This document shows positions 287 to 63,830 of a stretch of DNA of 64,000 bases, piece after piece. Made by a program: the position numbers and the translations under genes. The DNA lies in the IMG/VR virus record IMGVR_UViG_3300046373_000092, positions 1-64,000 of that record. One strand, 5' to 3'. The notes below the pieces were generated by a model. That model saw only the letters and a program-made list of their open reading frames with translations. It had not been told where the DNA came from and made no database searches. The stretch's first letter is position 1, and every line of letters begins with the position of its first letter. This stretch comes from a virus.

Positions 287-445
287 CTATTTAAAAATTT
301 CTTGTAGTAGCTCAGATCTAAAAACAGACATCCGCACGGAGGGAAACTTTGGATTACAACCAATCCATGGAAAATCCAGCGAACTTCCTCGTGAACATAA
401 ATACTTTATATCTGCCATACATCTAATTGAATATTTATAATCCAC
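287..445 (-). CDS. C-terminal S..EL microprotein family member (52 aa, not in ORF track)
   Basis: hand translation: MDYKYSIRC...SVRMSVFRSELLQEIFK*. Confidence 0.7.
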   Translation of the reverse strand: MDYKYSIRCMADIKYLCSRGSSLDFPWIGCNPKFPSVRMSVFRSELLQEIFK

Positions 446-582
446 TACACCACCACTAAGATTACTATTATCGGACAGATCACAATTAAGAATACTGCTA
501 GAGCCGTCACCAGAAAAGGAAGAATGCTCTTGGACCTTTTAGGTAGCCCGGCTCTATATTTGTTTAGATCTACTACAGACAC
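445..582 (-). CDS. small membrane protein (45 aa, not in ORF track)
   Basis: MSVVDLNKYR...ILPFLVTALAVFLIVICPIIVILVVV*; stop/start overlaps at both ends. Confidence 0.6.
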   Translation of the reverse strand: MSVVDLNKYRAGLPKRSKSILPFLVTALAVFLIVICPIIVILVVV

Positions 583-896
583 TATAATCTACCAAGGATC
601 ACTAACCCCAGTTTATTAAAACCCTTTACTGAAATTTTTTTCTTCTTGATTCCATCAGACTCGATGTAATTCTGTATGTTGATCCAAACTTTAGTTTCAA
701 TTGTTTCATGAGGTCTAGCAACTACTTCAGCAGATTGAATATAGATTTTTCCTTTAGCATCGATAAATGCATATTCATGATTAGTACTAAGTTTCATATG
801 TCTCCTCTTGGCTCTTTCTTTAGCCTTTAATCTTTTTAAGCGTTCCTCAGAAACGATCATTCCTTTATATCTAAATCTAGCGGGGTATGTTCTCAT
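582..896 (-). CDS. hypothetical basic protein
   Basis: 104 aa ORF in minus-strand operon. Confidence 0.65.
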   Translation of the reverse strand: MRTYPARFRYKGMIVSEERLKRLKAKERAKRRHMKLSTNHEYAFIDAKGKIYIQSAEVVARPHETIETKVWINIQNYIESDGIKKKKISVKGFNKLGLVILGRL

Positions 897-921
897 TTTG
901 CCATCTCTTTAACTCTAGGTT

Positions 922-1194
922 TCATTTTATAAACTCCGATACATTCCATTGGATTCCGACTAAACGCCAATTGTTGTTAGCCTTCCATTTCAAATATTGT
1001 ACCACGAAACCTTTCTTACGTAAAGCATCAACTATACTTTCACACACTTTTTCTTCAACAAACAATTCTACAAATTCGTGCCCCAGCAAAGCGTTAAGCT
1101 CAATTAAACTTTCGAGTTGCTTTAAACTCGTAACCGGCATAGAGTCGTGGTATTTTTTGTAGAGATCAAGAGCCTTTGCTTTATTTATAGTCAT
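922..1194 (-). CDS. hypothetical protein
   Basis: 90 aa ORF, start overlapped by upstream microprotein. Confidence 0.65.
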   Translation of the reverse strand: MTINKAKALDLYKKYHDSMPVTSLKQLESLIELNALLGHEFVELFVEEKVCESIVDALRKKGFVVQYLKWKANNNWRLVGIQWNVSEFIK

Positions 1195-1360
1195 TAAATA
1201 ATTCCTTTAGTAGTTCTGAGTAATGTGCGTCTATTCTAATTGCTGATTGATCCATGCCGTCCGAGTACCTAGTACCAGGTCTACTCATTAATCTACGGAA
1301 CCGCCGATGCTGAGTTGTATACAAGCTGGAAAAATACTCTGCTCGCTTATTTATTGCCAC
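1181..1360 (-). CDS. microprotein family member (59 aa, not in ORF track)
   Basis: GTG start; MAINKRAEY...AIRIDAHYSELLKELFNDYK*. Confidence 0.8.
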   Translation of the reverse strand: MAINKRAEYFSSLYTTQHRRFRRLMSRPGTRYSDGMDQSAIRIDAHYSELLKELFNDYK

Positions 1361-1559
1361 GAAATAACTCCTCCAATAACTCGGATTCTATCGCTCTATA
1401 GTTCACTACAAACAGTTCGCCTGTTAAAGCAGCTTGTTTCTTGGCGTCAGTGTAGAATAAATAGTCAAAAGTATAGGTTTCTCTTTTCATCGTTCTGATG
1501 GTTAACCAGTGCAAACTAACGTATTCAAATTGCTCTCTTGCTTTGCAACTAATTGCCAT
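1347..1559 (-). CDS. microprotein family member (70 aa)
   Basis: MAISCK...YRAIESELLEELFRGNK*; start reassigned to ATG at 1559. Confidence 0.8.
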   Translation of the reverse strand: MAISCKAREQFEYVSLHWLTIRTMKRETYTFDYLFYTDAKKQAALTGELFVVNYRAIESELLEELFRGNK

Positions 1560-1716
1560 AAAGTTCCTGGATAATTTTTGATTTAGCAACAGAGAGCTTA
1601 ATCCAGTGAGTGCCGAAATCTCTCCTCTTACTCCATGTTATAAGCTGAATTGTATATTGACTCATATTGTTGCGATATAAGCCAATATTCTCAACTTGCA
1701 TCCATTTATCCTTCAT
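1549..1716 (-). CDS. microprotein family member (55 aa, not in ORF track)
   Basis: MKDKWMQV...WIKLSVAKSKIIQELYGN*. Confidence 0.8.
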   Translation of the reverse strand: MKDKWMQVENIGLYRNNMSQYTIQLITWSKRRDFGTHWIKLSVAKSKIIQELYGN

Positions 1717-2518
1717 ATTGGAACTTACCGCCTACATATTTAATTCCTCTGCTAAATTCCACTAGAGGATGGCTCGCTGGGTAGTAGATGGAATAAATTT
1801 GATTTATAAAATATTCACCATATTTCTTTTTCAAACTATTAAAATATCTTTTCGCTATAAAATTAAAAACAAAATTTTGACGTTTTGAGGAAATGGCGTA
1901 TAGCTCCAGTAGGTAGAGCTTCCTACTACTAGTATCCTGCTTCGGCTTAAACGATCCGATAAACATATTTATTAGCATGCAAGGTAGCCAGTGTAGCGCC
2001 CATATTTTTTTCCCAGCCATTGCAAGCCACGGACTATAGTTCCCAGGATTAATCGGCATAACTCGTCTAGGCTTCACGTTATTGAATATTCCTAAGTTGG
2101 ACGCTCCGTAACTTACTACATCATCCTGAAAGGTATAGTCGCAGATTACTGATCCTGCGCAAATTGCATCTATGTTGTCGTGAGAAATTGATCTTCTGAT
2201 ATCGTATGGAACGTTCGTACTCTCCTTTGCCCCACGATCATAAAGCCCAGGACAAACTTGCAGATCTCGGACTAGCTTGTAGAATCTAGCGCGGTCTAGC
2301 CCGTCAAGCTCTCCGCGAATATGCAGCAGCATTAAGAACTCTGCATAATAGAGAATTCCGTTTTCTGTCGTTGTGCGCATATAAGGAAGATTGACGCCAG
2401 GTTGAAGTTCTAGCCCGTGAAAAGTTGAATAATATTCTCTATAGACTTCAGACTTCAACATTTCTGCTTTCCTTTTTACAATATAATTTGTTGTTAGAGA
2501 TTTCCAAAATGGATTCAT
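1706..2518 (-). CDS. hypothetical protein (~270 aa)
   Basis: SD AGGAGA before ATG at 2518; no family recognised. Confidence 0.75.
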   Translation of the reverse strand: MNPFWKSLTTNYIVKRKAEMLKSEVYREYYSTFHGLELQPGVNLPYMRTTTENGILYYAEFLMLLHIRGELDGLDRARFYKLVRDLQVCPGLYDRGAKESTNVPYDIRRSISHDNIDAICAGSVICDYTFQDDVVSYGASNLGIFNNVKPRRVMPINPGNYSPWLAMAGKKIWALHWLPCMLINMFIGSFKPKQDTSSRKLYLLELYAISSKRQNFVFNFIAKRYFNSLKKKYGEYFINQIYSIYYPASHPLVEFSRGIKYVGGKFQYEG

Positions 2519-2527
2519 ATATCTCCT

Positions 2528-2600: not shown

Positions 2601-2629
2601 ATTGTATCAGATTTAGTGCTCTGTGTCAA
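2601..2629 (-). promoter_or_regulatory. sigma70-type early promoter
   Basis: TTGACA-17 bp-TACAAT with extended -10 TG. Confidence 0.75.
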
Positions 2630-2799
2630 GTAAAAAGTTCTTGGAGTATTAAAGATTCTAAACACACAACCGCCACTACGGGATTATCCGACAGATCCTT
2701 ATGGCATGCATAAGAGTCTAATAAAGGTGCATAGTACTTGGATTTGAAATACGTTCTAACATCTCTAACATCTATGAATATCCCATTTTTTTTACACAC
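2626..2799 (-). CDS. microprotein family member (57 aa, not in ORF track)
   Basis: MCKKNGIF...VVCLESLILQELFT*. Confidence 0.7.
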   Translation of the reverse strand: MCKKNGIFIDVRDVRTYFKSKYYAPLLDSYACHKDLSDNPVVAVVCLESLILQELFT

Positions 2800-2989
2800 G
2801 AACTCTATCCCAAAGTCGGTCAGAAATTACAATCAAGAAAGGAGCTGCTATTAAAATAATAAAGGATGCAATAAATATCCAAGGATTATAGATAGGAGCG
2901 ACTATAGCAAAGAGCAGTAAGAACATACAGATGAAAGTCCATACAATCGCCATAGATACATTAAAAGCGTTAATCCAGTCACTATTCAT
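2792..2989 (-). CDS. small two-TM membrane protein
   Basis: two hydrophobic stretches in 65 aa. Confidence 0.7.
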   Translation of the reverse strand: MNSDWINAFNVSMAIVWTFICMFLLLFAIVAPIYNPWIFIASFIILIAAPFLIVISDRLWDRVRV

Positions 2990-3134
2990 AAAGCTCCCTC
3001 ACTATTTTAGACCGAGCAGACGCTATTCTTATTGCTAATTGGTAGCCGCTCTCTAATAACATGATGCGTTCATACCCCATATCATGGTGGTTGACATGAC
3101 CAAGCCAATGTAGTGGTACGTATTTATGTACCAC
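2982..3134 (-). CDS. microprotein family member (50 aa, not in ORF track)
   Basis: MVHKYVPL...AIRIASARSKIVRELYE*. Confidence 0.75.
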   Translation of the reverse strand: MVHKYVPLHWLGHVNHHDMGYERIMLLESGYQLAIRIASARSKIVRELYE

Positions 3135-3847: not shown

Positions 3848-3850
3848 AAA

Positions 3851-48733: not shown

Positions 48734-49362
48734 GATCTTTTGAATCTCTCAGAATGCCAAAGTTTAACGTCTAACTCCAGTCTAGTTAAAGTATCGTCAT
48801 TGTTAATAATAACGTCATAGTCTTTATCTTCCCCTATAGACAGTTCAGAGACGTGTCCCGACCCTTCGTATCCTGCACGCTTAATTCTGATCAGAGTAGC
48901 CCCTAGAGACTTTAGCGCGGCTCTTTCGTTGGGAAATCTAGCGTCAGTAATTACAATGTGCCCTTCCGTTTTTTTAACAACGTCTAGCGCCAAGTTAACA
49001 AGAAAGTCTTCGGCGATACAGTTACGTAACAGCTCTGTTCCGATAAACTGCAGTATCTCTCGGGGGGTGTTAAAAAACTTGTCTCTGCCATGCTGCATTA
49101 GTAGCTGGGTCTGCATTTCGTCAGCATTAACTAACTTAGCCAAAATCTCCACATTTTCAATTCTCATAATTACTGGAGAATTAAAGCTAAGGTCTTTAAG
49201 CGCATCATCTGTAAAATGGATTAGGGGGAGCTGCATACACTCGGCAGAAAGCTTACGCAGAGGATCTGCAAAGGCTACTCTTTGATAATTGAAGTGACGT
49301 TTTAATATATCAGCGACGACATCTTTACCTGAGCGTTTAGGAGCAGAGAGTACGATAATCAT
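48730..49362 (-). CDS. deoxynucleoside monophosphate kinase
   Basis: P-loop SAPKRSGKD, FADPLR, TPREILQFIGTE, ITDARFPNE, HVSE. Confidence 0.9.
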   Translation of the reverse strand: MIIVLSAPKRSGKDVVADILKRHFNYQRVAFADPLRKLSAECMQLPLIHFTDDALKDLSFNSPVIMRIENVEILAKLVNADEMQTQLLMQHGRDKFFNTPREILQFIGTELLRNCIAEDFLVNLALDVVKKTEGHIVITDARFPNERAALKSLGATLIRIKRAGYEGSGHVSELSIGEDKDYDVIINNDDTLTRLELDVKLWHSERFKRS

Positions 49363-49541
49363 AAGTATAATTCCTTTAGTAGTTGTGATTTGAAGATTTT
49401 ATTATTAAGAATAACCGACCCGTGAAACGGGTTTTTGCAGAAAGAGTAGGGCATATTCCTATAGATAGATGATGCAATTGCATCACTTAAATAGAGGAAT
49501 GCGTAGTAGTCGAACTGGGATTTGTTTTTTCCGCTAATCAT
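49359..49541 (-). CDS. microprotein family member
   Basis: MISGKNK...IFKSQLLKELYL*. Confidence 0.8.
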   Translation of the reverse strand: MISGKNKSQFDYYAFLYLSDAIASSIYRNMPYSFCKNPFHGSVILNNKIFKSQLLKELYL

Positions 49542-49723
49542 GACAATAGCTCCTTCATAATTGAGGATTGGAATACGTCAATTAGAGTTATTCTCCAATT
49601 TCTAGCCTTAGCAATATCCGGAGTGTGTATGCACAAATCTAAATTTCTAGTTGCAGCTTTTAAGTCTGAGTACGTTAGGGGGCTATCGGAGCTATACCCC
49701 CTCTTAGTATTATCTATCGCCAC
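49538..49723 (-). CDS. microprotein family member
   Basis: GTG start MAIDN...VFQSSIMKELLS*. Confidence 0.8.
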   Translation of the reverse strand: MAIDNTKRGYSSDSPLTYSDLKAATRNLDLCIHTPDIAKARNWRITLIDVFQSSIMKELLS

Positions 49724-49916
49724 GAAATAGCTCCTGGATAATCTTAGATTCAAGCATGTCGTATAGCCAAATACTGAATCCGTATTCTTCTGCCATTAAA
49801 GAGTCGTGTCTTTGATGTATCCCATACCTCGAACTGTCCAAAGCTCTTTTAAAAACATCCATTGAACCGCGCTTAAATCTATAGGTGTAGCCTAGTTTGT
49901 TTTTATTTATTGCCAT
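49710..49916 (-). CDS. microprotein family member
   Basis: MAINKNK...MLESKIIQELFRGDR*. Confidence 0.8.
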   Translation of the reverse strand: MAINKNKLGYTYRFKRGSMDVFKRALDSSRYGIHQRHDSLMAEEYGFSIWLYDMLESKIIQELFRGDR

Positions 49917-50115
49917 TAGATGCCTCAAATAATTCTAAAAATATCTCAGATTGAAAGTATTCATTGCGAACAAAATATCCATATTGCCCTCCCGTATTCG
50001 GAGTGTGACACCCATCAAATGGATTATCGGAATACTCGAGATAATCAGAGTAGAAATCTTTAGTCTCAGAGAAATTATAAAATCTACAGCCCAGCAAGTC
50101 TTTTCTTGTCGCCAT
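49903..50115 (-). CDS. microprotein family member
   Basis: ...YFQSEIFLELFEASNGNK*. Confidence 0.8.
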   Translation of the reverse strand: MATRKDLLGCRFYNFSETKDFYSDYLEYSDNPFDGCHTPNTGGQYGYFVRNEYFQSEIFLELFEASNGNK

Positions 50116-50116: not shown

Positions 50117-50293
50117 CTAGTCCTTAAATAAAGCTATGAATAATTCTGAGTTGAGTGTTTCATTGCAAAAAAATCGGTCTTTGTTTATAATCCCAGGGTC
50201 ACTCGACAGCCATCGACCGTAAGAGCTTCCGACATAATTCTTTAGACAGTACGGCAGTACCGCAAACTTACTAAATACAAATCCTTGCTTCAT
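50117..50293 (-). CDS. microprotein family member (58 aa, not in ORF track)
   Basis: MKQGFVFS...TLNSELFIALFKD*. Confidence 0.7.
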   Translation of the reverse strand: MKQGFVFSKFAVLPYCLKNYVGSSYGRWLSSDPGIINKDRFFCNETLNSELFIALFKD

Positions 50294-50647: not shown

Positions 50648-50677
50648 ATTGTAGCACAGTGTCATTGCTAATTGCAA
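50648..50677 (-). promoter_or_regulatory. sigma70-type promoter
   Basis: TTGCAA-18 bp-TACAAT with TG extension. Confidence 0.5.
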
Positions 50678-50841
50678 CAAAGTTCTTGAATAAGTTCTGA
50701 TTTAATACAAGACTCAGATAGTGCATATTTCCAATGATGCTTCACAAAGTGGAAGTCATATTGGTATTCCAACCCATTAATGAGGGGTAGTTCATATAAA
50801 ATATCGTCCACTCCAATATACAATCTCTTTTTGTCTATCAC
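50668..50841 (-). CDS. microprotein family member (57 aa, not in ORF track)
   Basis: MIDKKRLY...CIKSELIQELCCN*. Confidence 0.75.
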   Translation of the reverse strand: MIDKKRLYIGVDDILYELPLINGLEYQYDFHFVKHHWKYALSESCIKSELIQELCCN

Positions 50842-53335: not shown

Positions 53336-55633
53336 TTATTTTCCCTCTCTTAAATTATAAGCTACTGTCGGCTCCGCAATTAACGGCATCAGTAGTGTGT
53401 TTGTATTCTCCATACAGTCTTTAACAATTTCGCAAGATCTATCTAATTCTTGTTTATTAGCAGTAGCTACCCATTCGTCGTGAACCTGCAAACTTAACCA
53501 AGCGTCCGTCCCCTCTTCCAGAAACTTCTTAGCCATAGCTATTCCGGCTCTGTTTACTAAACTGGCAGCGGCAGATTGAATCGGGAAGTTAAGGGCGTTA
53601 TTTAATAGACCGTTGTAAGTCTTGCTAATGTCTTTAGCTTCTTGATATGTTATGCCGTGACGTTTTGCGATTAGCCCAAGTTTTTTGTAGTCGAGGATGC
53701 CGTCGCCGTAAGTGTCGTATATTTCTTTCACTCTCGGTAAATGGCGGACACGTCCAAACTTACTAGTTACTTTCCCAGTGGTCTTGGCTTCACGTAAATA
53801 CTGGTCCATCTTCTTCTTCAGTCCGGGGAAAGCTTTAAAATAGTTATCAATAATGACCTGAGCCTCCTCCATACTGATGTTGAGAGTCTTGGATAGTTTC
53901 CCAGCCTTCATTCCATAGCGAATTCCCAAAGCATAAGCCTTGGCATCTTGACGCTTTTTTGGAAACAACTTCTTCAAAAAGTTAGCAGCCTTTTTATCAG
54001 CAGAGACCCCTTGAATATTTTCAGCATTAATCGCCACTACTGAGTACATGTCTAAGCTGTCTGTGAAGATTTTAATTAAAGCTTCGTCTCCAGCATCGTC
54101 AGCAAAGACTCTCGGCTCCAAAGATTCATAATCGTCATCAATGTAAGCGTAGCCCGGTTTAGGAATTAGCAGTTCCCTAATAATATCGTTAAACTTCGCG
54201 ATAGTTGGATGCTCTTCTTCCTCGTCTTCTTTCGGCTTCGGAAATTGTTGAGCATCCGATCCGTAGCGCCCAGAGGTAGTTCCGTGCTGTTTAAAGCTTG
54301 GATACCAGATGCCATCTTCTTGTTGATCAATCAGACGTTGGTAATAACTACTTTGTATTTTTGTAAGTTTATTAAATATTCTAAGTTGAGTTGCCCAGTC
54401 AAAGCCATATTTTTCGGCGATATGTTCAACCACTTTTTCGTCAAATTGATCTCCGCCGGTCTTTGTTTTCGAAAGAGAAGCAATTCCCATGTAATCAAAA
54501 ACAATCCTTTTAAGATGATGTTTGGAGCTAATGTTGATGAAGTTTTCGGAGTCATCAGATTCTTTTAGTAGCTGTAGTTGTATTTCTCTTGTGACATACT
54601 CTGGAAGATCTTCTAGTCCCAATAGAAATTTAAGACCCGCACCTCCCCTCGGAAGTATATCAGAGTTAAGGCTTTCTAAATTTTTTTTAGTGATGCTAAA
54701 TTTACCGGCAGCAGTTCGAGGTAGTGGCAAATCATAATATGTTGCAACTTTCTGAGCAAAACCTCCACTATTTTTGGGAGCAAATTCTTGTTCAAGTCGT
54801 TCCTGAACAAATCTCTGCCCTGCCGGAGTAGCCATCAAAGCATCAATTACTATTTTTTCGTAGTTTGCCAATTCAATAGTTATTTCTGCATTTGCCTTTA
54901 GTAGTTTTGGCATGTCGAGGTATACCCCTCGGTGCTCCATCTTCACCGTGCAATATTTATATAGCGGCATAACCTCATCTTCGTAAAAAAAGCCGTGTAA
55001 ACTTTCAACGTGCAGTCTAACTTCTAAAAACTTGAACAATCGAATAGTCATATCTACATCGGCACAGCAGTAGTAGCCTATAAGCTCCATATCGCCTTTG
55101 TAGATGTCTTTCTGAGTCTTCAGCCATTTACCTCCGTTGCGTTTAACAGACTCCGCCAGTTCTAATTGCTCCTGGTTAGAAGCGTCCTGTTCGTCGAGTC
55201 CAATCTCAACTTTGTATTTTTCTGCAAGGAACTTCAAACCAACGTTAGATTCCTCGTCTAGTGTGTGCTCCATTAGCTGAGTATCGGCGTGTAACGATCC
55301 GAGATAATTTACCTTTAAGTCATTCATGGTAATGCGAATATCGTAACTAGCGTTGTGCATTACAAGCTTTTTCGACTTCATAGCATCAAGCAGTAGTTTG
55401 TGATTAAAGGGCAGGGCGAAATCGACAAGAGTGTCAGTCTCGACATCAAATTTGAAGAGAGGATAGTAGTAACCCATGCCCTCTTGCCCAGTGAAGCCAT
55501 ACCCAATTACTGTGTCTTTGCGAACGTTTAGTCCAGTAGTCTCTGTATCATAGGCAATGAATTCATGCGACTTAATGTGGTCCAAGGCTTCTTGAAAAAG
55601 TTCTGGAGTGTTAATAATCAAATAATTCTTCAT
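53336..55633 (-). CDS. polA: family A DNA polymerase with 3'-5' exonuclease
   Basis: DTETTG, HNASYD, YCCAD; TTSGRY, DYESLEPR, KAYALGIRYG, NFPIQSAAA, QVHDE. Confidence 0.95.
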   Translation of the reverse strand: MKNYLIINTPELFQEALDHIKSHEFIAYDTETTGLNVRKDTVIGYGFTGQEGMGYYYPLFKFDVETDTLVDFALPFNHKLLLDAMKSKKLVMHNASYDIRITMNDLKVNYLGSLHADTQLMEHTLDEESNVGLKFLAEKYKVEIGLDEQDASNQEQLELAESVKRNGGKWLKTQKDIYKGDMELIGYYCCADVDMTIRLFKFLEVRLHVESLHGFFYEDEVMPLYKYCTVKMEHRGVYLDMPKLLKANAEITIELANYEKIVIDALMATPAGQRFVQERLEQEFAPKNSGGFAQKVATYYDLPLPRTAAGKFSITKKNLESLNSDILPRGGAGLKFLLGLEDLPEYVTREIQLQLLKESDDSENFINISSKHHLKRIVFDYMGIASLSKTKTGGDQFDEKVVEHIAEKYGFDWATQLRIFNKLTKIQSSYYQRLIDQQEDGIWYPSFKQHGTTSGRYGSDAQQFPKPKEDEEEEHPTIAKFNDIIRELLIPKPGYAYIDDDYESLEPRVFADDAGDEALIKIFTDSLDMYSVVAINAENIQGVSADKKAANFLKKLFPKKRQDAKAYALGIRYGMKAGKLSKTLNISMEEAQVIIDNYFKAFPGLKKKMDQYLREAKTTGKVTSKFGRVRHLPRVKEIYDTYGDGILDYKKLGLIAKRHGITYQEAKDISKTYNGLLNNALNFPIQSAAASLVNRAGIAMAKKFLEEGTDAWLSLQVHDEWVATANKQELDRSCEIVKDCMENTNTLLMPLIAEPTVAYNLREGK

Positions 55634-55808
55634 CTATTAATTCCTTAAAAACTTCAGACGTTATTGCTAAATATTTCACATAGTCATTATTTAAGAGGGT
55701 GTATGCAAAATTAGCGGAATCGCCTATGAACCAAGTTCCGGTTTCATCGCGATACCCAACTAGCTCTGAGCCGTCCTTATTTATCTTATATCCTTTCACA
55801 GTGCTCAT
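55611..55808 (-). CDS. microprotein family member
   Basis: ...AITSEVFKELIDEELFDY*. Confidence 0.75.
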   Translation of the reverse strand: MSTVKGYKINKDGSELVGYRDETGTWFIGDSANFAYTLLNNDYVKYLAITSEVFKELIDEELFDY

Positions 55809-56065
55809 GATGGACCCAAAGGCAAATCCTTTCTTCGAGGACGAGATTCAGCGTCCTGCGCTCTAGGGGCGGCAGACACTAGATAGCCGCTCTGAACTAA
55901 CTCTTGTTCAAGTTCCTCGTGTAATAATGTGCGTTTATGAGGATTTTTTTCATACGCTACAAATTCTTTAACCTCACATACGAATTCAATAAACTCCACC
56001 CCAGCCATCATAGCCATAAAAAAAAGAACCGCGTATCCAACCCATTGAGCTATTTCATTTAACAT
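55805..56065 (-). CDS. membrane protein
   Basis: N-terminal TM. Confidence 0.6.
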   Translation of the reverse strand: MLNEIAQWVGYAVLFFMAMMAGVEFIEFVCEVKEFVAYEKNPHKRTLLHEELEQELVQSGYLVSAAPRAQDAESRPRRKDLPLGPS

Positions 56066-56220
56066 AAAATCTCCTGTAAGATTCTAGAATTATATGCTGA
56101 AGGTTTCAGGAATAGGGATTTGGGGCATTCGTAATCCCAATGCACCCCTAAAGCCCAATACTTAATCCTACCTCGAAGAGACCAATAGTTTTCTGCCCAG
56201 CCAGACGTATCAATTTTCAT
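56059..56220 (-). CDS. microprotein family member (53 aa, not in ORF track)
   Basis: MKIDTSGW...AYNSRILQEILC*. Confidence 0.75.
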   Translation of the reverse strand: MKIDTSGWAENYWSLRGRIKYWALGVHWDYECPKSLFLKPSAYNSRILQEILC

Positions 56221-56699
56221 TGTGCCAAATCCCCCTGCACTGAGAATAGTTCCTTCCAGTAATGTTTCACGTTACGCTGGTAATCAGAATCCTGCATTAA
56301 ATTAGGATTCATAATACTGAACGGTGACTTATCCAAAAATTTCTCTTCTGTGTGCTTTCTGTGCAAAACAGCATGTCCCAATTCGTGCGCAATAGTATTC
56401 TCTCTTTGCGAAGCAGAAGACTTACTCCAAAGGAACTTGTTTATAAAAATAAATTTTTGATGTGTACTGTAAGAGTCTGGAGCGCGTCCTTGCACATCTA
56501 TAGGTAGTTTATCAGAAAAACGAATATATAGCAAGTAAAAAGGTTCAAACTTAACGTTTTGCGATTTTGCCTCTTGCATAAATTTATCAACATATGGACG
56601 GAATTCATCTGAACAGATTACTCGGTTATGCATGTAAGCATAGGCTGCCACTAAAAAGAGGAGGTGTAGCGTGATGCTTGCGCAGGCTGTTCTAAACAT
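56217..56699 (-). CDS. exported metzincin (matrixin-like) metalloprotease
   Basis: N-terminal hydrophobic segment; HELGHAVLHRKH and Met-turn SIMNP. Confidence 0.8.
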   Translation of the reverse strand: MFRTACASITLHLLFLVAAYAYMHNRVICSDEFRPYVDKFMQEAKSQNVKFEPFYLLYIRFSDKLPIDVQGRAPDSYSTHQKFIFINKFLWSKSSASQRENTIAHELGHAVLHRKHTEEKFLDKSPFSIMNPNLMQDSDYQRNVKHYWKELFSVQGDLAQ

Positions 56700-56884
56700 A
56701 ATAATTCCTTTATTACGGCAGTATATTTAAGGCGCTCAATCAGTGAAAGCTGTGTTAAAGTGATGGTATCTGAACCTTTACTTCCTGAAAATTGAAGGCA
56801 ATGATAATTATTTCTGCAGTGTCTAGCGACTTCTCTGAAATCAAAATTGTATCTAAAAATTTCAACTAAGTTTTTAAAGTTCAT
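56651..56884 (-). CDS. microprotein family member (extended C-terminus)
   Basis: ...LKYTAVIKELLCL... Confidence 0.6.
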   Translation of the reverse strand: MNFKNLVEIFRYNFDFREVARHCRNNYHCLQFSGSKGSDTITLTQLSLIERLKYTAVIKELLCLEQPAQASRYTSSF

Positions 56885-57393
56885 ATATGTCTCCAAATCT
56901 CTCTTCTAACTAATTTTCCAACGTGCTTATATTGAAGATTCATTTTGGTAGCGATGTCTCTCTTGGACATTCCCTCTTCGTGGAGTTTTCTAACCTCCAA
57001 AACAATCTCATTAGTAACTATAGAATCTGGGTGCTGTTCTCCTTGGACGTGTGGTATAAACATCCTTCCTTGTTTAAGGCAGTGATCCATGTTCATTTTT
57101 CTAGTACACCACTGAAGATTATCAAATCTATTGTTTAAAGGATTATTATCGATATGATTAATCTCTTTATAATTATTCATATTAGAAATAAAATGCTTAG
57201 CTACTAATTGATGCACTCTCCATTCAACAGCCTTCCCATCTTTTCTAAGAGCCACCTGCTCATAGCCTTTTTTAGTAATTCTCGCTTTTAAAAATTTATT
57301 ACTTTTCAAGCTAAACAGTCTTCCTAGATTTGAAATTTCATACCCAGAAAAACCATTTACAGCCTTAAATATTTCCCCACTAAAACAAGTCAT
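56881..57393 (-). CDS. NUMOD4-HNH homing endonuclease
   Basis: YEISNLGRL, VHQLVAKHFI, INHIDNNPLNN..NLQW. Confidence 0.9.
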   Translation of the reverse strand: MTCFSGEIFKAVNGFSGYEISNLGRLFSLKSNKFLKARITKKGYEQVALRKDGKAVEWRVHQLVAKHFISNMNNYKEINHIDNNPLNNRFDNLQWCTRKMNMDHCLKQGRMFIPHVQGEQHPDSIVTNEIVLEVRKLHEEGMSKRDIATKMNLQYKHVGKLVRREIWRHI

Positions 57394-59332
57394 TATCTGC
57401 CTTTTTCTTATTTGCCTTCTGTACTCTCAATTCCTCTAAATTAATCTTCTCTATAGCCTCTAACTCTCGGATACTTCCAGTTACTCCATCCCAGGCAAAA
57501 TCGAGAGAAAACATAGCTCCATGTCGATTTTTTAGACAATCGAGGGAATAGTACTTATCATTTTCGAATGTTCTAGGGCTGGCTCCAGGTCTTGAAACCC
57601 AGAGCATAGCATTCGATAGCTCAGCAAGTGCTCCAGACCCCTTAAAAGCAGCGTATGTTTCCGCAGGTTCATCCATTCTTTGGTTAGCTTTGTTTGGCTG
57701 TCCAAGAAATACAACACACTTACGAAGTGCTGAAGCTATCTCTTTTAGCCCCTGAACAGAGTACATTGAGCGTTGAGTAGGGTCGCTGTAGTCGGACCTA
57801 ATCAAGTCTAAGTAGTCTACTAAAATAAATTTAATGTCTGTGCCAAGAGCTTGTTCTGTTCTGATAATTCTATCTTTCATCTCTTCGATGGACATTCCGG
57901 CGGAACGAACAAAATTAACGTTGCTGTAATTTTCCGCAAGACAGAGTCTGAATTTCTCTCTCCAAGACGGATCTTCCATTCTAGTATAAACTTCCTTAGC
58001 AGAAATTTTATAATGCTTTTGAATTAGCTTTTGATAAACATCTTCTAAAGACATGTCGAAAGAAAAGAACATACTGTTAACAGCTTGCTTAGAAGTATTG
58101 TTTAGTAGCTGAAGAGATAGCGAGGTCTTCCCAGAACCAGGGCTACCTCCAATTGCATACACTCTTCCTACTTGCGCTTCCAGAGCTGCATCCAAAGATT
58201 TAATCCCGAATTCCAATCTGTTTTTGCCGATATTAGCAGCGTAGTCCTCAAAAATGTTTCCAACTTGTTCTACTGAAATAACATCTTCTTTTGACTTCAC
58301 AATGTGTTTAGCTGGGATGCTTGCCGCTAACGACATCAGTAGTTCGTCTGACTTCTCAGAGTAAGTGCCGCCGTTCCAGCTCGGACTGTAAACTTGACGA
58401 ATAATGTTACTCCAAATCTCAGACTTTGGAAATTTATCACACCCCATTAGTAAGGATTGTTTTTCCATTGCTGATTTAATTAAGTAATACGCCTTATTCT
58501 CGTCATATCCAAGGTTACGATAAGTAGAGGCTAAGATCATTCCTGCGTGAGAACGAGATCCAGCCGGGAAGAAACCCAACTCTACTAGCCATTTAGCTGG
58601 AGATAAGTCTGTGGGCTTTTTAGTCCAATCAACGTCATTGATGTTAATTACTGTAACTTCTTTTAGGGGCTTCACAGAGGGAGTTTTTGCCTTTAAATCC
58701 TTCATTAGCGTAGTAAGCTTAACTGGAGCCCATGCGTCTTTAATAGCTGAATACTCCAGCTCTTGCTTTGCTACTTCCGCAATTTCAGTTGCCGATAGTG
58801 TGCGAAGATCCTCAACTCCCAACGGATATTTAAATAATCCGGATTTCTGGTGTTTTGTGAGGGGCAATCTAAAAATGCGAGTGGCGTTGTATATTTTAGA
58901 ATCTACAGTGGTCAGTCCTTCTGCAATGTTCATGCAAATATTTTTTGTTTCGGATGGCGTTAAACGTTCTCCGTCAAGTTGCACAGACACTTCAAATCCT
59001 TTATTTCCGCTAAAGAAAATACGAATGTTCTCTTCTGTGTAGCCCTGAGACTGAAGCCTCTTAACAAGCTCTACCGCGTCGATACGAGCCTCTTCAACGT
59101 GCTTCTCACTGTCGAAGTCCCATGTTAACTTGTCAGTCGTTACGTCGGTCATCCCAGCTACAGATCCAGTAGTTTGGAATGTTTTGAATTGGGCATCGTT
59201 AAAATAGAATAAGGAAGTGTAGGCATCCTTGTTTTTGTTTAGTGATTTATACACGCCAGTAAGGTCGTTGCCAATTACTGGAATTAAAGTACCTTTATCT
59301 GCTAAGTCTTTGCAAAGTCTGATGTAATCCAT
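57380..59332 (-). CDS. primase-polymerase fused to DnaB-like helicase
   Basis: WDFD and FSGNKGF (AEP), RIFRLP; Walker A GSPGSGKT, VDYLD, KNRHG. Confidence 0.9.
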   Translation of the reverse strand: MDYIRLCKDLADKGTLIPVIGNDLTGVYKSLNKNKDAYTSLFYFNDAQFKTFQTTGSVAGMTDVTTDKLTWDFDSEKHVEEARIDAVELVKRLQSQGYTEENIRIFFSGNKGFEVSVQLDGERLTPSETKNICMNIAEGLTTVDSKIYNATRIFRLPLTKHQKSGLFKYPLGVEDLRTLSATEIAEVAKQELEYSAIKDAWAPVKLTTLMKDLKAKTPSVKPLKEVTVININDVDWTKKPTDLSPAKWLVELGFFPAGSRSHAGMILASTYRNLGYDENKAYYLIKSAMEKQSLLMGCDKFPKSEIWSNIIRQVYSPSWNGGTYSEKSDELLMSLAASIPAKHIVKSKEDVISVEQVGNIFEDYAANIGKNRLEFGIKSLDAALEAQVGRVYAIGGSPGSGKTSLSLQLLNNTSKQAVNSMFFSFDMSLEDVYQKLIQKHYKISAKEVYTRMEDPSWREKFRLCLAENYSNVNFVRSAGMSIEEMKDRIIRTEQALGTDIKFILVDYLDLIRSDYSDPTQRSMYSVQGLKEIASALRKCVVFLGQPNKANQRMDEPAETYAAFKGSGALAELSNAMLWVSRPGASPRTFENDKYYSLDCLKNRHGAMFSLDFAWDGVTGSIRELEAIEKINLEELRVQKANKKKADNDLF

Positions 59333-59520
59333 TTTATTTTATCCTCTAGTAATGTTTGAAATATGTCTGATTGAAAAATTCTCTTAGTAATAACTGTATA
59401 ATTTGTTCTGTCTCCGAACCATCGGTGAGCTTTGGTAAACTGGATGCCCTCTCGGTGCCCAATCTCCAGCAAAGTTTCTAAAAAATTAGGATAGATCAGC
59501 TCATGTGGATTTCTTTTCAT
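59302..59520 (-). CDS. microprotein family member
   Basis: ...IFQSDIFQTLLEDK... Confidence 0.7.
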   Translation of the reverse strand: MKRNPHELIYPNFLETLLEIGHREGIQFTKAHRWFGDRTNYTVITKRIFQSDIFQTLLEDKIKWITSDFAKT

Positions 59521-59710
59521 TTAGTAATTCCTGAAAAATTTCAGTAAAGAATACTCTTTTGCAAATAGCGGCTCTGTCCCAAACGCGATAATTATGAGTC
59601 GAGAATGTCCACCCACTCCACCAAGTAGTTTTTTTAACTAAAACTCTGTCCAAGAAGTCGGAATTAACTTTATCCCCGTCTTTTAATTTATAACCGGTGT
59701 ATTTCAGCAC
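59501..59710 (-). CDS. microprotein family member
   Basis: ...VFFTEIFQELLNEKKST*. Confidence 0.75.
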   Translation of the reverse strand: MLKYTGYKLKDGDKVNSDFLDRVLVKKTTWWSGWTFSTHNYRVWDRAAICKRVFFTEIFQELLNEKKST

Positions 59711-60003
59711 AACAATTCTCCAATTAAATCAGAAGTAGTAACTGTTAATTTTACGTTCACTGGAGTAAACTTTCCGATCCAAATGTTAGTAATAATCTTG
59801 CCAATATAAGATCCAATAAAATTGGCATCACTACAAGCTTGATACGGGATACTTTGCGTTTGCATTTTTCTAGTAGTCATGTTTTGTATTGTTAACTGTA
59901 TGTAATAACTCTCTTGCCGATCTGTAAGATGTATTCGATACAAATCCCCCCTAAAGTATATGGGATCTTGGAATTCACGAAGCGCATTGATAATGACACC
60001 CAT
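59704..60003 (-). CDS. longer microprotein family member (99 aa)
   Basis: ...VTTSDLIGELLC*. Confidence 0.6.
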   Translation of the reverse strand: MGVIINALREFQDPIYFRGDLYRIHLTDRQESYYIQLTIQNMTTRKMQTQSIPYQACSDANFIGSYIGKIITNIWIGKFTPVNVKLTVTTSDLIGELLC

Positions 60004-60005: not shown

Positions 60006-61178
60006 CTAAGTTCCATACTCGTTAATGAAGATCTTTCTTCCCCAAGGAATTCCGTCCCAAGTGTGCTTTCCGATAATTGTCCAAAGAGTGGGCAGATTGC
60101 TTTTGGGAACTTCCTCGTAGAAGTCTCCGTCGGTAAAACAGACAATAACATCAGCTCCCAATTCTTCGGCTTTCTTAAATCCCGGAGACATTACTGTCCC
60201 TCCACGACCCTGAATTTCAGGCTTCATTCTAGGATTAAACTCTCTCACGTTCTGAACATCACTGTCACACTCAATAAGAGTAATTTGCATGTTGGGGTAG
60301 AACTGTTGAAGTTTAGCCATTTCGCTCCAGCCCTGGGCTAGATATTCATCTGACATAGACCCTGAAGTATCGAGTAGGAAAGCTAAGTGCATCTCCCATT
60401 CTTTCTTTTTACCGGCAAACATCGTCCCGTAACGTCTGTTACGCTTCTTGCGAGAGCCTGTTCTAGTAAAGTTAACTGCATTGTTTACAAATTTTCTCAG
60501 CTCAGACTTCCAATTGATTTTAGAAGCAAAGAGCTGGTCCAAGATTACTGAAAGACCGTTAGACATGTTCCCAGCTCCTCCAGCAGCATCCGAAGCCTTT
60601 TTAGCGGCTTTCTTTACGAGGTGCTCTTTGTAGGCTTGAGAGATATCTTTTCCATCTGATTCTTCCCAAACGTCGTGATCATCAAATTGATCTCCAGCTC
60701 CAGACTCATCAAACTTGTCCTGACATTTTTCGATGATGCGAGCATAGTAGTCGAATGACTGTAGAGCTTGGATAGAAGACGGTTCCACGAACTCAGAACA
60801 AGCCTCGCGGAACCTAGCAAGAGTGACGCCGCCGATTTCATCAACCGACTCCTCAATTCCTTCCATTTGATTAATAGTACAATCCATCGCAATGTTTTTT
60901 TGCTTGTGAGTAAGCTTGTCGAAATCCATGCGATCTTTAGAGAGGGTGCAATGATTTAGAATCAAGTGAAGACACTCATGTTTTAAAATGTCTTCTTGCT
61001 GCTTATTAGTCTTAGAATCGAACCATTCGCTGTTAACATACAGATTGATTTGATCTGTTACACTTACTCCCAGAGTAGGGCATTTAGTAGTGTAAACACG
61101 ACGACAACTTTGCAAAATTGAAGCGTAGAAAATATTTTGAGACATAATAAGTCTTGAGATAGCTGATTCTAATGACAT
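60006..61178 (-). CDS. DUF2201-type metallopeptidase + vWA domain protein
   Basis: KHECLH, MIDAS DTSGS, GRGGT, FTDG; SD GAGGG before ATG 61178. Confidence 0.9.
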   Translation of the reverse strand: MSLESAISRLIMSQNIFYASILQSCRRVYTTKCPTLGVSVTDQINLYVNSEWFDSKTNKQQEDILKHECLHLILNHCTLSKDRMDFDKLTHKQKNIAMDCTINQMEGIEESVDEIGGVTLARFREACSEFVEPSSIQALQSFDYYARIIEKCQDKFDESGAGDQFDDHDVWEESDGKDISQAYKEHLVKKAAKKASDAAGGAGNMSNGLSVILDQLFASKINWKSELRKFVNNAVNFTRTGSRKKRNRRYGTMFAGKKKEWEMHLAFLLDTSGSMSDEYLAQGWSEMAKLQQFYPNMQITLIECDSDVQNVREFNPRMKPEIQGRGGTVMSPGFKKAEELGADVIVCFTDGDFYEEVPKSNLPTLWTIIGKHTWDGIPWGRKIFINEYGT

Positions 61179-61191
61179 AAACACCCTCATG

Positions 61192-61314
61192 TTATTTATA
61201 GAGACAGTTGCAGTGCTTGCAATTTTTAAGATCCTTGAACCAACGAAATTTACCGTCGTGCGAATGGAGCCCAAAAAAGCAAGCTATTAATTGAATCAAT
61301 TTATCCTGATCCAC
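61192..61314 (-). CDS. small Zn-binding protein (40 aa, DUF1660-like, not in ORF track)
   Basis: MDQDKLIQLIACFFGLH...CKHC. Confidence 0.55.
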   Translation of the reverse strand: MDQDKLIQLIACFFGLHSHDGKFRWFKDLKNCKHCNCLYK

Positions 61315-62423
61315 TACTTGCTTTCTTCAGTAAGCGAAGATTGAACTTTCTCAACAACTCCAGCAGCCTTTTGTTGCTTCACAAGGTTTAGCAATCTGTC
61401 GTTCTTATTTAAGAATCCTTCGATAACGATGTCGTCATTAATAAAGTTTTCAACTTTGATTAAGTTAAACAAATTCGCAATAGCCAAGTCACCTGGAATA
61501 GCTAGTAGGAATTCATTTACCTGGGCAACGTTGTGTTCAGTGATGATTGTTGTTTCCAACGCTAGAAGCGCCATAAGCTCTTCTGAAGCAAGAGAAAGCA
61601 TCGGCATGTTGTGCTGAGCTACTAGATCCTTAACATTGTTAAAGTCGCGCAACATAGCTTCAACGTCAATTTTCTTAGGCTTTTCACGAACGTATGACTC
61701 GAAAGCTGCCGCAGCTTCAGATCCTACCATTCCTTGCCCAATTTCGAATCTAATAGACTCCGGCAATCCTAAATTGATTAGGGATTGAAATCTAATTGCA
61801 GAACGTCTAGACGGCTTGATGTCTGCGTAGCTTAGAGGTGCTAAGTCCTGCTCGATCATGTTCTTGTGTTCTTGTAGGAACGAAATGAAGTCTCCGTTAG
61901 TTGTAGACTTTGCGTACGAGATGAACTCTTCTTTAGAAGGTTCGAAGTTGATGTGGCAAAATCTGTCTGAGAAAGCTGGGTCAGTGAGGTCTAGTACCGA
62001 GTAGTCCCCGTTTGGTGGGTTCATCGCTGCGATGACCTTAGTATTTACAAGCTTGTGCGGTCCAAGTTGAGAGCCCGTCTCTACTGCCTGGAAAATAGCT
62101 TGGATCAAATCTTTATGTGATCTATTTACTTCGTCGAAAAATAGGATGGTTTCTTGTTCCTCAGAACCATTTAAAAACTCAGGAGCAGCAAAAACAGTGT
62201 TGATAGCTCTGCCCGCGTCATTTCTAACGAAGTCAGCTAGACCAATTAAGTCACCTGCGTCAGAAAGTTGCCCAAGACGGATAACTACTAGACGAGATCC
62301 CCTAGCCTGCGCAATTTGCTCTACTACAGTAGTCTTTCCTACGCCGTGGTACCCGCGAAGTAATGGTGTGATTTTTGCTTTGAAAAGAAAGTCTACTGCT
62401 GTTGTAATGTCTGAAATCTTCAT
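61314..62423 (-). CDS. MoxR-like AAA+ ATPase
   Basis: GYHGVGKT, DLIG, FFDEVNR, AAMNP, LTDPAFSDRF. Confidence 0.9.
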   Translation of the reverse strand: MKISDITTAVDFLFKAKITPLLRGYHGVGKTTVVEQIAQARGSRLVVIRLGQLSDAGDLIGLADFVRNDAGRAINTVFAAPEFLNGSEEQETILFFDEVNRSHKDLIQAIFQAVETGSQLGPHKLVNTKVIAAMNPPNGDYSVLDLTDPAFSDRFCHINFEPSKEEFISYAKSTTNGDFISFLQEHKNMIEQDLAPLSYADIKPSRRSAIRFQSLINLGLPESIRFEIGQGMVGSEAAAAFESYVREKPKKIDVEAMLRDFNNVKDLVAQHNMPMLSLASEELMALLALETTIITEHNVAQVNEFLLAIPGDLAIANLFNLIKVENFINDDIVIEGFLNKNDRLLNLVKQQKAAGVVEKVQSSLTEESK

Positions 62424-62470: not shown

Positions 62471-62499
62471 TTTATAGCACAGCGTTAATTATTTGTCAA
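62471..62499 (-). promoter_or_regulatory. sigma70-type promoter
   Basis: TTGACA-17 bp-TATAAA with TG extension. Confidence 0.7.
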
Positions 62500-62665
62500 G
62501 CGAAAATAATTCTTTTATTAAAGCAGAATTTCTTGTGTCATATTTAATTAAATATGCTCCCGGATCGGAGCCAACGTTGGCTATTCCATTTTCATCCACT
62601 AGAAATGAACCATCATATTCTAAATGATCAATCCAAAAAACATAGTCTCCAATTTCAATTTTCAT
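62489..62665 (-). CDS. microprotein family member (58 aa, not in ORF track)
   Basis: MKIEIGDYVFW...TRNSALIKELFSLDK*. Confidence 0.8.
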   Translation of the reverse strand: MKIEIGDYVFWIDHLEYDGSFLVDENGIANVGSDPGAYLIKYDTRNSALIKELFSLDK

Positions 62666-62851
62666 AAAAACAATCCCATTATTACTGCAGATTTCAATGC
62701 AACTACTCTAACGGGCTGTGTTTGTTCTATACCGTATAAGTCCGAGGCGCGCATCTGCCACCTCGATCTACTGGTTTCATAGAAGTCTCGGAGTTCTTCC
62801 GCAGAATCATGATATAGCCCCCCAGCACCAGTCTCCAACTTTAATCTTCAT
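62662..62851 (-). pseudogene. microprotein family member with +1 frameshift in a G6 run
   Basis: 190 nt; removing one G at 62818-62823 restores the 62 aa MKIKVGDWCWGLYH...ALKSAVIMGLFL*. Confidence 0.7.
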
Positions 62852-63002
62852 CTAGCAACTCCTGAAAAATTACAGACTCGTAAACAGTAACTCTAATGTG
62901 AAAATAATCCTCGTGCTTTTGAAAATTAAATCCTCCGTGATGTTTCCAATAAAGATCAACAGGAGTCTTATAGTAGAATGGCTTGGATATATCAATTTTC
63001 AT
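62841..63002 (-). CDS. microprotein family member (53 aa, not in ORF track)
   Basis: MKIDISKP...VYESVIFQELLDED*. Confidence 0.8.
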   Translation of the reverse strand: MKIDISKPFYYKTPVDLYWKHHGGFNFQKHEDYFHIRVTVYESVIFQELLDED

Positions 63003-63006
63003 CTAG

Positions 63007-63168
63007 CTAACTCCTGTAGCAGCGAAGAGCAGAAATTTTTACCACCGGCAGGTGTTTTGAAAAAACATTATTCATGGGAAGTATCCAGCCGGAGCTTTTA
63101 GCAACGCTAGCTCTTATATCAATTAAGTTTCGGTAATACCAACATGAGTCACCTGGTTTAGCTTTCAC
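63007..63168 (-). pseudogene. microprotein family member with C-terminal motif lost by frameshift
   Basis: MKAKPGDSCWYY...KISALRCYRS*; LQELAR* lies in a shifted frame; paralog 63158-63334 ends AMRSELLQELA. Confidence 0.65.
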
Positions 63169-63334
63169 ACGCCAACTCCTGTAATAGTTCAGAACGCATA
63201 GCTATTATTTTTACAAAGGGGTAAGCAAGGGGTAACGGCTTTTTCAGTACCCATCCAGCTTTATTGTTAGTACTTTGCCTAATATCAAGAGTACTGGCGT
63301 AATACCAACACAAATCACCAGTTTTAGCTTTCAT
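63158..63334 (-). CDS. microprotein family member
   Basis: MKAKTGDLCWYY...AMRSELLQELACES*. Confidence 0.8.
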   Translation of the reverse strand: MKAKTGDLCWYYASTLDIRQSTNNKAGWVLKKPLPLAYPFVKIIAMRSELLQELACES

Positions 63335-63450
63335 CTTTACTCCAATAAAACAGTTAGTAGCATAATCCCAATCCATAGGAAAAATAACGTCATAAGCACC
63401 TCTTGTGTTTTTAGTAGTATAAACTAAAAACAATAGGATGCAAGTGGAAA

Positions 63451-63630
63451 TTACTTCGGAGACTGAGGAAGCAAAGCCTCTAATATATCTGACTCAACAC
63501 TGTCTACTCTAATTCTAAATCTATTTGGTAAGAAGCTGGAACTCCCTTTAAATGTGCGCACCCAATAAATAGGATGAAAGCAATCTTCCCACAGGCTGTA
63601 GTAGTGGAAGTGTCCCTGTTTAAGCTTCAT
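63451..63630 (-). CDS. microprotein family member
   Basis: ...IRVDSVESDILEALLPQSPK*. Confidence 0.7.
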   Translation of the reverse strand: MKLKQGHFHYYSLWEDCFHPIYWVRTFKGSSSFLPNRFRIRVDSVESDILEALLPQSPK

Positions 63631-63830
63631 TTGAATGCTCTCCAAATTTCTGCGTTAACAGCATCTACTCTAATTACAAAGTTTCCTGCCGTGTACGAAA
63701 GAATCAGATCTTGAAAACGGACTCCATAGCGATAAGAGCCCCTATTTCTATAGCCCGCACTGTAAGATATCCAAGCACAACCTCTCTGAGAAGATAGAAT
63801 TACGCACTTGTCTGTTGGTCTAATTTTCAT
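63627..63830 (-). CDS. microprotein family member (divergent)
   Basis: ...IRVDAVNAEIWRAFK*. Confidence 0.6.
   Translation of the reverse strand: MKIRPTDKCVILSSQRGCAWISYSAGYRNRGSYRYGVRFQDLILSYTAGNFVIRVDAVNAEIWRAFK

Follow-up and report, generated by a model that had tools for sequence, protein, structure and literature searches.

A large family of small proteins sharing a C-terminal strand-helix and a putative translational joint in an uncultured phage genome of about 82 kb

Genome organization and members of the family

The DNA analyzed here, hereafter the window, comprises the first 64,000 nucleotides (64 kb) of IMG/VR virus record IMGVR_UViG_3300046373_000092; its minus strand encodes dozens of microproteins that differ along most of their length and share one C-terminal ending. 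The complete record is an 82,065-bp virus genome (rated complete by CheckV). Its DNA was found in a single sequencing run, a soil metagenome from which the record probably derives, and no RNA run is listed as containing it. The genome has a direct terminal repeat of 127 bp (window 1-127 and the genome end), which joins the two minus-strand arms (0.3-4.6 kb and 41-82 kb) into one block on a circular map, and the assembly is probably circular. The plus strand from 5 to 41 kb is a late block encoding terminase, portal and further large virion proteins. The minus-strand block encodes PolA, a DnaB-type helicase, a dNMP kinase, an RNase H-like protein, a ClpP-like protein, an M78 peptidase, an HNH endonuclease and a MoxR/vWA pair. 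AGGAG-type Shine-Dalgarno (SD) sites precede the late genes, which points to SD-dependent initiation in the host.

For a first census we searched open reading frames (ORFs) of at least 30 amino acids (aa) across the whole genome for the strict pattern S-x-[LIVMF]2-x-E-[LIVMF] within 16 residues of the C-terminus. The pattern occurs in 41 of 615 ORFs, all 41 on the minus strand. A profile search with anchoring extended the family to 59 members (58 on the minus strand, one on the plus strand), which align without gaps across a block of ~17 residues, so that the common C-terminal motif described in an initial annotation of the window stands. The family consensus is h-[KR]-h-x-[AVS]-h-x-S-x-[ILV]-[ILVF]-x-E-L-[FLY], followed by a tail of 0-14 residues. 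Positions are numbered from the Ser N-cap, with Glu at +5 and Leu at +6. Together the 59 genes (median 62 aa) sum to 11.5 kb, about 14% of the genome.

Within the window there are 38 clear members, six at 0.3-3.1 kb and 32 at 41.8-63.8 kb, and three further ORFs that are degenerate or decayed (41622-41819, 56651-56896 and 63007-63168), which agrees with the initial count of about 41 minus-strand ORFs. The annotation had placed these genes in two separate arms; members do occur in both, with the qualification that the arms are contiguous on the circular map and that 21 more members lie beyond the window, at 64-82 kb (66192-68708, 69849-70206, 78389-78481, 79430-80869 and 81152-81382, the last being the sole plus-strand member). 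The plus-strand late block of the window contains no member, as had been noted. Members are termed coupled if a start codon lies 5-13 nt after the first base of the Glu codon (44 members) and uncoupled otherwise (15 members). The window ORFs, with the residues of the motif, are as follows.

287-445, minus strand: member, 52 aa, ends SELLQEIFK; uncoupled, with a terminator-like hairpin following
1181-1360, minus strand: member, 59 aa, SELLKELF plus NDYK
1347-1589, minus strand: member, longest ORF 80 aa; likely start is the MAIS... codon near 1559
1549-1716, minus strand: member, 55 aa, SKIIQELY
2626-2799, minus strand: member, 57 aa, SLILQELF; uncoupled, end overlaps a strong sigma70-like promoter (2629-2601)
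2982-3134, minus strand: member, 50 aa, SKIVRELY
41622-41819, minus strand: degenerate member, GGLLYELLH, Ser replaced
41810-42031, minus strand: member, SELIRELC
43777-43986, minus strand: member, 69 aa, SNLIKELF
45765-45953, minus strand: member, 62 aa, SKLIKELT; codons AAA GAA, next start 20 nt off
45943-46128, minus strand: member, 61 aa, SELLRELY
46118-46342, minus strand: member, TDIFQELF
46273-46473, minus strand: member, SAVYKELL
46578-46775, minus strand: member, 65 aa, STLLEELY
46762-46962, minus strand: member, TPIFKELY
46953-47135, minus strand: member, 60 aa, SDLFKELW; Ser codon AGT
47132-47317, minus strand: member, AEIFAELF
47593-47793, minus strand: weak member, SSLFLEVK
48169-48354, minus strand: member, SKIIQALY, Ala in place of Glu
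48351-48557, minus strand: member, SSVIEGLL
48554-48733, minus strand: member, SALIQELF plus a 7-aa tail; codons CAA GAA, next start 29 nt off
49359-49541, minus strand: member, 60 aa, SQLLKELY
49538-49753, minus strand: member, SSIMKELL; textbook joint AAGGAG-N8-ATGA
49710-49928, minus strand: member, SKIIQELF
49903-50115, minus strand: member, SEIFLELF plus a 7-aa tail
50117-50293, minus strand: weak member, SELFIALF
50668-50841, minus strand: member, 57 aa, SELIQELC; uncoupled, codons CAA GAA
52109-52297, minus strand: member, 62 aa, SEIVRELC
55611-55808, minus strand: member, 65 aa, SEVFKELI; directly upstream of PolA, 3' end overlapping the PolA start
56059-56220, minus strand: member, 53 aa, SRILQEIL
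56651-56896, minus strand: degenerate member, TAVIKELL; usual spacing to the next start (56699), stop lost, frame continuing 16 codons into the next gene
59302-59520, minus strand: weak member, SDIFQTLL plus a 14-aa tail
59501-59710, minus strand: member, 69 aa, TEIFQELL
59704-60003, minus strand: member, longest ORF 99 aa, SDLIGELL
62489-62665, minus strand: member, 58 aa, SALIKELF; uncoupled, codons AAA GAA; AlphaFold2 model made
62662-62838, minus strand: member, SAVIMGLF
62841-63002, minus strand: member, 53 aa, SVIFQELL
63007-63168, minus strand: degenerate paralogue of 63158-63433; MKAKPGD start retained, helix motif gone after ...KISALR
63158-63433, minus strand: member, SELLQELA; likely start MKAKTGD (63331)
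63451-63645, minus strand: member, SDILEALL
63627-63830, minus strand: member, 67 aa, AEIWRAFK

Statistical support and database searches

Residue-shuffled ORFs score at most 8.6 bits against the family profile, while true members reach 27.6 bits. In a non-circular test, a profile trained solely on the 21 members at 64-82 kb, outside the window, recovered 34 of the 38 window members; at a threshold where ~1 false hit is expected among 455 ORFs, it made 37 hits, 36 of them on the minus strand. The claim that the motif exceeds what shuffled ORFs yield is thus upheld. Full-length identity between paralogues in this genome is 38% at best and most pairs are undetectable by BLAST, as would be expected of genes that are old or fast-evolving. 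This low identity, together with synonymous differences among the motif codons, led us to reject recent duplication or gene conversion as the source of the common ending.

No described family appears to match the microproteins, in line with the initial view. None of the 59 members matches Pfam at E ≤ 0.01 and one has a weak match in PHROGs (E = 0.0025). Ten members and ten members from related phages gave only matches with E > 0.01 against curated profiles, and a PDB sequence search with family profile A4 gave no match. Against 1.84 billion representative proteins, profile A4 found five members from this genome, two spurious repeat proteins and nothing else, a search with little power for profiles this short (of the 59 known members, only 5 themselves clear its threshold). 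Profile A1 yielded 917 word candidates among 5.8 billion proteins, none at E ≤ 0.01, the profile being too short for a database of that size; the single member P0122 matched itself alone in the same set. A terminase-based search for related loci found no close relative, and a megablast of 7 kb of the genome against cultured phages had no match. The nearest cultured PolA is that of Flavobacterium phage immuto (42% identity), in which a 42-kb region contains no family members.

Codon usage and the joint between genes

Codon composition separates selection on the peptide from selection on overlapping nucleotide signals. In motif columns +2, +3 and +6 the second codon base is always or almost always T (2.0, 1.75 and 2.0 bits, respectively), with first and third bases nearly free, and the Leu at +6, present in 54 of 59 members, is written with five codons. 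All the Ser codons listed in the initial annotation were counted at the N-cap (TCT 27, TCA 15, TCC 4, TCG 3, AGT 3), plus one other Ser codon; the third base of the TCN codons matches genome codon usage, and a few AGY codons occur as well. The motif also persists where no coupled gene follows, as reported for members 287, 2626, 50668 and 62489; these, along with 45765, 48554 and 66192, retain it with CAA GAA or AAA GAA, and the use of such non-SD codons argues that the peptide is selected in its own right. Protein-level selection thus acts on the Ser N-cap and the hydrophobic helix face. That the family is selected as protein is borne out by the codon columns, the uncoupled members and the dN/dS values of orthologues (0.2-0.45, below).

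A second signal is overlaid on the first. The amino acid at +4 varies (K, Q, R, E and others), and the third base of its codon is G in 34/44 coupled vs. 3/15 uncoupled members (Fisher p = 1.3e-4). The Glu codon is GAG in 22/38 coupled vs. 2/9 uncoupled members, and Glu itself is kept in 38/44 vs. 9/15 (p = 0.057). In ~44 of the 59 members the downstream start lies 7, 8, 10 or 11 nt past the first base of the Glu codon. These starts are ATG, GTG or TTG, follow xxG-GAR and usually overlap the upstream stop. Joints of type 1 are ATGA or GTGA overlaps, those of type 2 have an 8-nt overlap with the upstream TAA inside the downstream M-K-x-K codons, and those of type 3 have an 11-nt overlap giving M-A-I-(S)-N-K; stop/start overlap forms include ATGA and GTGAAAGCTAA-type. 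At the sequence level the joints have the form of translationally coupled ones, with an SD-like purine run 5-9 nt before a start that overlaps or abuts the upstream stop. On this pattern, the xxG-GAR codons (+4/+5) are the SD of the neighboring gene, the tail residues are dual-coded with the neighbor's N-terminus, and the SD site accounts for part of the conservation of Glu.

A non-family protein of ~98 aa with a hydrophobic N-terminus, encoded at five related loci (L009, L017, L008, L010 and L006), ends ...KKTG[LI]LKELE before a coupled start. K-E-L endings in unrelated proteins can therefore arise from SD-in-ORF coupling and nothing more.

Occurrence and evolution in related phages

PolA marks a very large clade of uncultured phages. 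More than 1,000 proteins match it at E ≤ 1e-50, with 54-74% identity among the best listed; the closest, P0002 at 74%, is encoded on a 70.6-kb contig, and contigs of 78-87 kb carry many of the others. Our comparison set consisted of 80 IMG/VR loci around PolA and five complete or nearly complete genomes (G001-G005; G000 is the genome described here). Related phages with PolA 53-57% identical have 3-15 family copies each (15 in G001, about 8 in G002), and no family members were found in G003, G004, G005 or any locus with PolA ≤44% identical. Among the 80 loci, small ORFs ending in a related motif are on the PolA strand in 75 cases vs. 3 on the opposite strand. We take the family to be an extreme, lineage-specific microprotein expansion confined to one clade of ~80-kb uncultured phages.

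Motif versions differ among the relatives: S-S-L-x-x-E-L-L-stop in L017 and G001, [ST]-P-L-h-x-E-L-[FL]-stop in L009 (8 members) and S-[Px]-L-[IL]-x-x-I-[FY] in G002, in which Glu is not conserved. Both Ser positions alternate between TCN and AGY codons in the relatives, which indicates selection on the protein and not gene conversion. The bodies of these proteins are SH3/KOW-like (xVGDxVxI..., G-x-V-V, W-V-x-G).

Between a conserved 83-aa gene and PolA there is one member in L008, L010 and L012, two in L017 and three in L009; whole genes have been gained or lost at the joints in these relatives. Orthologous members are 38-53% identical and neighboring genes 80-95%, with dN/dS of 0.2-0.45 for family orthologs and 0.02-0.16 for most neighbors. 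The members are real genes that evolve fast under purifying but relaxed selection.

Partner co-occurrence profiling across the five related genomes found no phage gene restricted to the genomes that carry the family. The MoxR/vWA pair, initially proposed as a docking partner, is present in G001, G002, G004 and G005 and not in G003, and thus occurs in genomes without the family and does not track it; the ClpP-like gene is also present in genomes that lack the family.

Predicted structure and composition

Two AlphaFold2 models, built from alignments of paralogs and relatives, have a pLDDT of 74 (model 1) and 77 (model 2, pTM 0.53). Both begin with a strand at the N-terminus, have another immediately ahead of the Ser and finish in a helix; these two strands and the helix are the confident parts of model 1, and model 2 has three strands followed by the helix. 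The noise-level fold matches include PWWP, Tudor, designed SH3 and L24-type barrels, and a BFVD fold search with model 1 gave nothing below E = 1.8. Leads only came from the ESM Atlas (unnamed viral clusters, 0.86; the SH3-like DfrB, DsrB and DUF4314, 0.81-0.83), and the relatives' members have a weak match to DUF1918 (E = 0.012). A homodimer prediction (two copies, A4 alignment) scored 0.01, which is evidence neither way.

On a helical wheel the conserved positions +2, +3, +6 and +7 fall on one face, and +1, +4 and +8 are polar and variable. An N-cap Ser with a single conserved hydrophobic face is what characterizes a helix that packs against the sheet of its own protein. The variable bodies that had been set against this constant C-terminal strand-helix are confirmed. 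Relative to the large proteins of the phage they are enriched in Trp (4.1x), His (2.4x), Tyr (2.3x) and Arg (1.7x), and also in Cys. The median isoelectric point (pI) of the members is 9.0; 39 of 59 are above 8.5 and 13 are acidic (pI below 6).

Neighboring genes and promoters

Other features of the window that adjoin or are interspersed with the family are listed here.

44029-44961, minus strand: ClpP-family protein, 310 aa, among replication-arm genes and distant from the head genes
53336-55633, minus strand: PolA gene
56217-56699, minus strand: IrrE/M78 peptidase-domain protein
56881-57393, minus strand: NUMOD4 + HNH_3 homing-endonuclease-like gene, adjoining the DnaB-type helicase gene
60006-61274, minus strand: DUF2201 metallopeptidase/VWA protein (the pair spans 60006-62423)
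61314-62423, minus strand: MoxR-type AAA+ ATPase, pair partner of the DUF2201 metallopeptidase/VWA protein
63908-63960, minus strand: near-consensus extended -10 promoter, TTGACA-16-TATACT with TG, immediately after a strong terminator hairpin

The promoter at 63908-63960 is likely to start the long coupled operon running down the 63-41 kb block. Between 44 and 64 kb, sigma70-like promoter sites are not enriched (50 observed vs. 52.4 expected), and the 17 terminator-like sites vs. 11.9 ± 3.6 expected were likewise counted as no enrichment. The ClpP-family protein is kept in all five related genomes at 33-39% identity, and prohead protease is one candidate role for it.

Interpretation and alternative explanations

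On balance, and with some reserve, we favor the reading that the microproteins are a fast-evolving family of small beta-barrels in which the constant end serves both as fold core and as translational-coupling joint, making the genes portable cassettes. Each product is probably a small barrel (SH3/KOW/chromo-like). The last strand and the two-turn amphipathic helix with its Ser N-cap would close the hydrophobic core, and the strands and loops in between, which are rich in Trp, Tyr, His and Arg and have diverged nearly beyond alignment, could offer different binding surfaces. Ribosomes would be handed from gene to gene along long operons that are co-oriented with the replication genes and that we take to be early. 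Because the tail of each gene holds the start signals of its neighbor, each gene would be a self-contained cassette that could duplicate, insert between essential genes or vanish without breaking translation; this would explain both the expansion and the scattered positions. As to function, we would guess that the proteins form a repertoire of binders, differing in their targets, for early host takeover or anti-defence.

Several points weigh against this reading. Structure prediction gave the strand and terminal helix that the initial annotation had described, and left the remainder of the fold weak: the middle of the protein is of low confidence in both models, the fold matches are at noise level (Z ≤ 3.5, Foldseek E > 1), and burial of the helix is deduced from a conservation pattern and not from observed coordinates. 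Gain and loss at the joints is documented in the more distant phages alone and not for the genome described here. A purely structural role also fails to explain two observations: the motif version is uniform within a genome and differs between genomes (E-L in G000 and G001, x-I in G002), and position +1 is Pro in 7 of the 8 L009 paralogs vs. 0 of 21 in the equidistant L017, L008 and L010 (p = 5e-6). This Ser-to-Pro change in L009 is concerted across syntenic orthologs, with codons that vary synonymously. A shared trans-acting reader would explain both the Pro switch and the genome-specific versions, which we treat as a hint; a founder effect or compositional/GC pressure are possible alternatives for the switch (GC content is 42% in L009 and 32-35% in the compared lineages).

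The concerted switch is the reason why the docking idea of the initial annotation keeps standing, though we regard it as improbable. In that idea the exposed strand-helix would be a common handle by which all members dock on one trans-acting hub (a host chaperone, protease, polymerase or clamp, or a phage protein), with the body picking the targets, so that the 59 proteins would form a combinatorial library of adaptors, effectors or decoys; there is perhaps one chance in several that this is so. The motif would then co-evolve with the hub lineage by lineage, as the genome-uniform versions and the L009 switch would fit, and variable bodies with a constant end are what such a library should look like. 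Glu +5 and the specific Leu at +6 also exceed simple packing needs, and Glu is present in 9/15 uncoupled members. Against docking, however, only the N-cap and one helix face are conserved, a pattern of the buried-core type, and the polar positions +1, +4 and +8 vary within G000. Glu is partly an SD residue, being less kept without coupling, and G002 does not conserve it; anything from 0 to 14 residues can follow the motif; and no phage gene, the MoxR/vWA pair and the ClpP-like gene included, is restricted to family carriers. As to the more specific suggestion of an F-box/SOCS-box-like adaptor, the Pfam search matched no F-box, SOCS-box or other known docking motif model, and no Pfam model of any kind. 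The other analogy offered, the T4 internal-protein capsid targeting sequence, fails by location, as that sequence is a short N-terminal signal removed by the prohead protease, whereas the conserved block is C-terminal in all 59 members. The variable length of the tail after the motif also led us to set aside a ClpXP-type C-terminal degron or PDZ ligand.

A somewhat less probable proposal, compatible with the cassette reading, is that the products are small basic nucleic-acid-binding barrels of the Sso7d/chromo/PWWP kind that remodel host or phage nucleic acids early in infection. It draws on the high pI of most members, the enrichment in Trp, His, Tyr and Arg, the barrel plus C-terminal helix architecture reminiscent of Sso7d/Sac7d, and the top (non-significant) Foldseek matches, a PWWP domain bound to ssDNA and Tudor domains; the 13 acidic members, the lack of a significant structural or sequence match in our searches and the absence of an obvious need for 59 divergent nucleic-acid binders argue the other way. 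That the motif is instead a nucleotide-level artefact, a reiterated SD/spacer/start, promoter or RNA element that is translated in frame while the peptide itself is not selected, is very improbable, and the codon analysis has largely refuted it. It is true that the next gene has its SD in the K/Q/R-E codons, that G is enriched only where a gene follows, and that unrelated proteins of relatives end in ...KELE before a coupled start; yet the hydrophobic columns fix the second codon base only, Leu +6 is written by five codons and Ser by both the TCN and AGY families, uncoupled members keep the motif with non-SD codons, strand-like conservation reaches 8 residues further upstream, and dN/dS is below 1 in orthologs. 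We give equally little credence to a nascent-peptide regulator, in which the last ~20 residues would act in the exit tunnel at termination and promote re-initiation at the overlapping start. The conserved block corresponds roughly to the chain segment held in the tunnel at the stop codon and is tightly tied to coupled joints, but the motif-to-stop distance varies from 0 to 14 residues, uncoupled members retain the motif, the block is not known to resemble any arrest peptide, and its pattern fits a folded strand-helix.

Resemblance to known systems

Among published systems, the closest analogue is that of the promoter-early stem-loop (PeSL) cassettes, which T4-type phages carry in their hyperplastic regions (Arbiol et al. 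2010, PMC2839356). According to that report, a short, reiterated element borders many small early genes that are not essential, and relatives differ by whole small genes inserted, deleted or replaced at the element, a situation met here in L008/L010/L012, L017 and L009. The two systems differ in the nature of the element. PeSLs are intergenic, consisting of a sigma70 promoter and a terminator stem-loop that flank unrelated ORFs, and they work by DNA recombination and transcription (PMC2839356). The element described here, in contrast, lies inside the coding sequence of one protein family, overlaps the SD, stop and start, and has little nucleotide identity; promoter and terminator matches are not enriched, and the genes overlap without intergenic space.

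Two further likenesses can be drawn. Poxvirus ankyrin/PRANC (F-box-like) proteins, an example of the multigene families of large eukaryotic viruses, also occur as many paralogs per viral genome with a variable body and a short, conserved C-terminal helical motif. PRANC and F-box motifs dock on Skp1/cullin ligases, which bacteria are not known to possess; there is no sequence similarity to the phage family, for which docking is a proposal only. The Sso7d/Sac7d, chromo, Tudor and PWWP domains resemble the fold predicted for the microproteins, with ~60 residues, 3-5 strands and an amphipathic C-terminal helix, and are likewise often basic and aromatic-rich; they differ in that no structural (Z ≤ 3.5) or sequence match to them is significant, and the centers of the models are of low confidence.

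Implications

Phage genomes are usually thought too compact for large paralog families, whereas here one family takes up about one seventh of 82 kb and sits between essential replication genes. Its dual-coded ending shows how such an expansion can happen, and the family is a worked example of telling protein-level from SD-level constraint where signals overlap. Standard gene callers and family databases currently miss these genes. If a hub does read the common ending, the library would be to bacterial viruses what the F-box/PRANC multigene families are to viruses of eukaryotes. If the products are instead a repertoire of binders or anti-defence proteins, the family would provide tens of natural variants of a ~60-residue scaffold, and would explain part of the unannotated small genes in a large uncultured clade.

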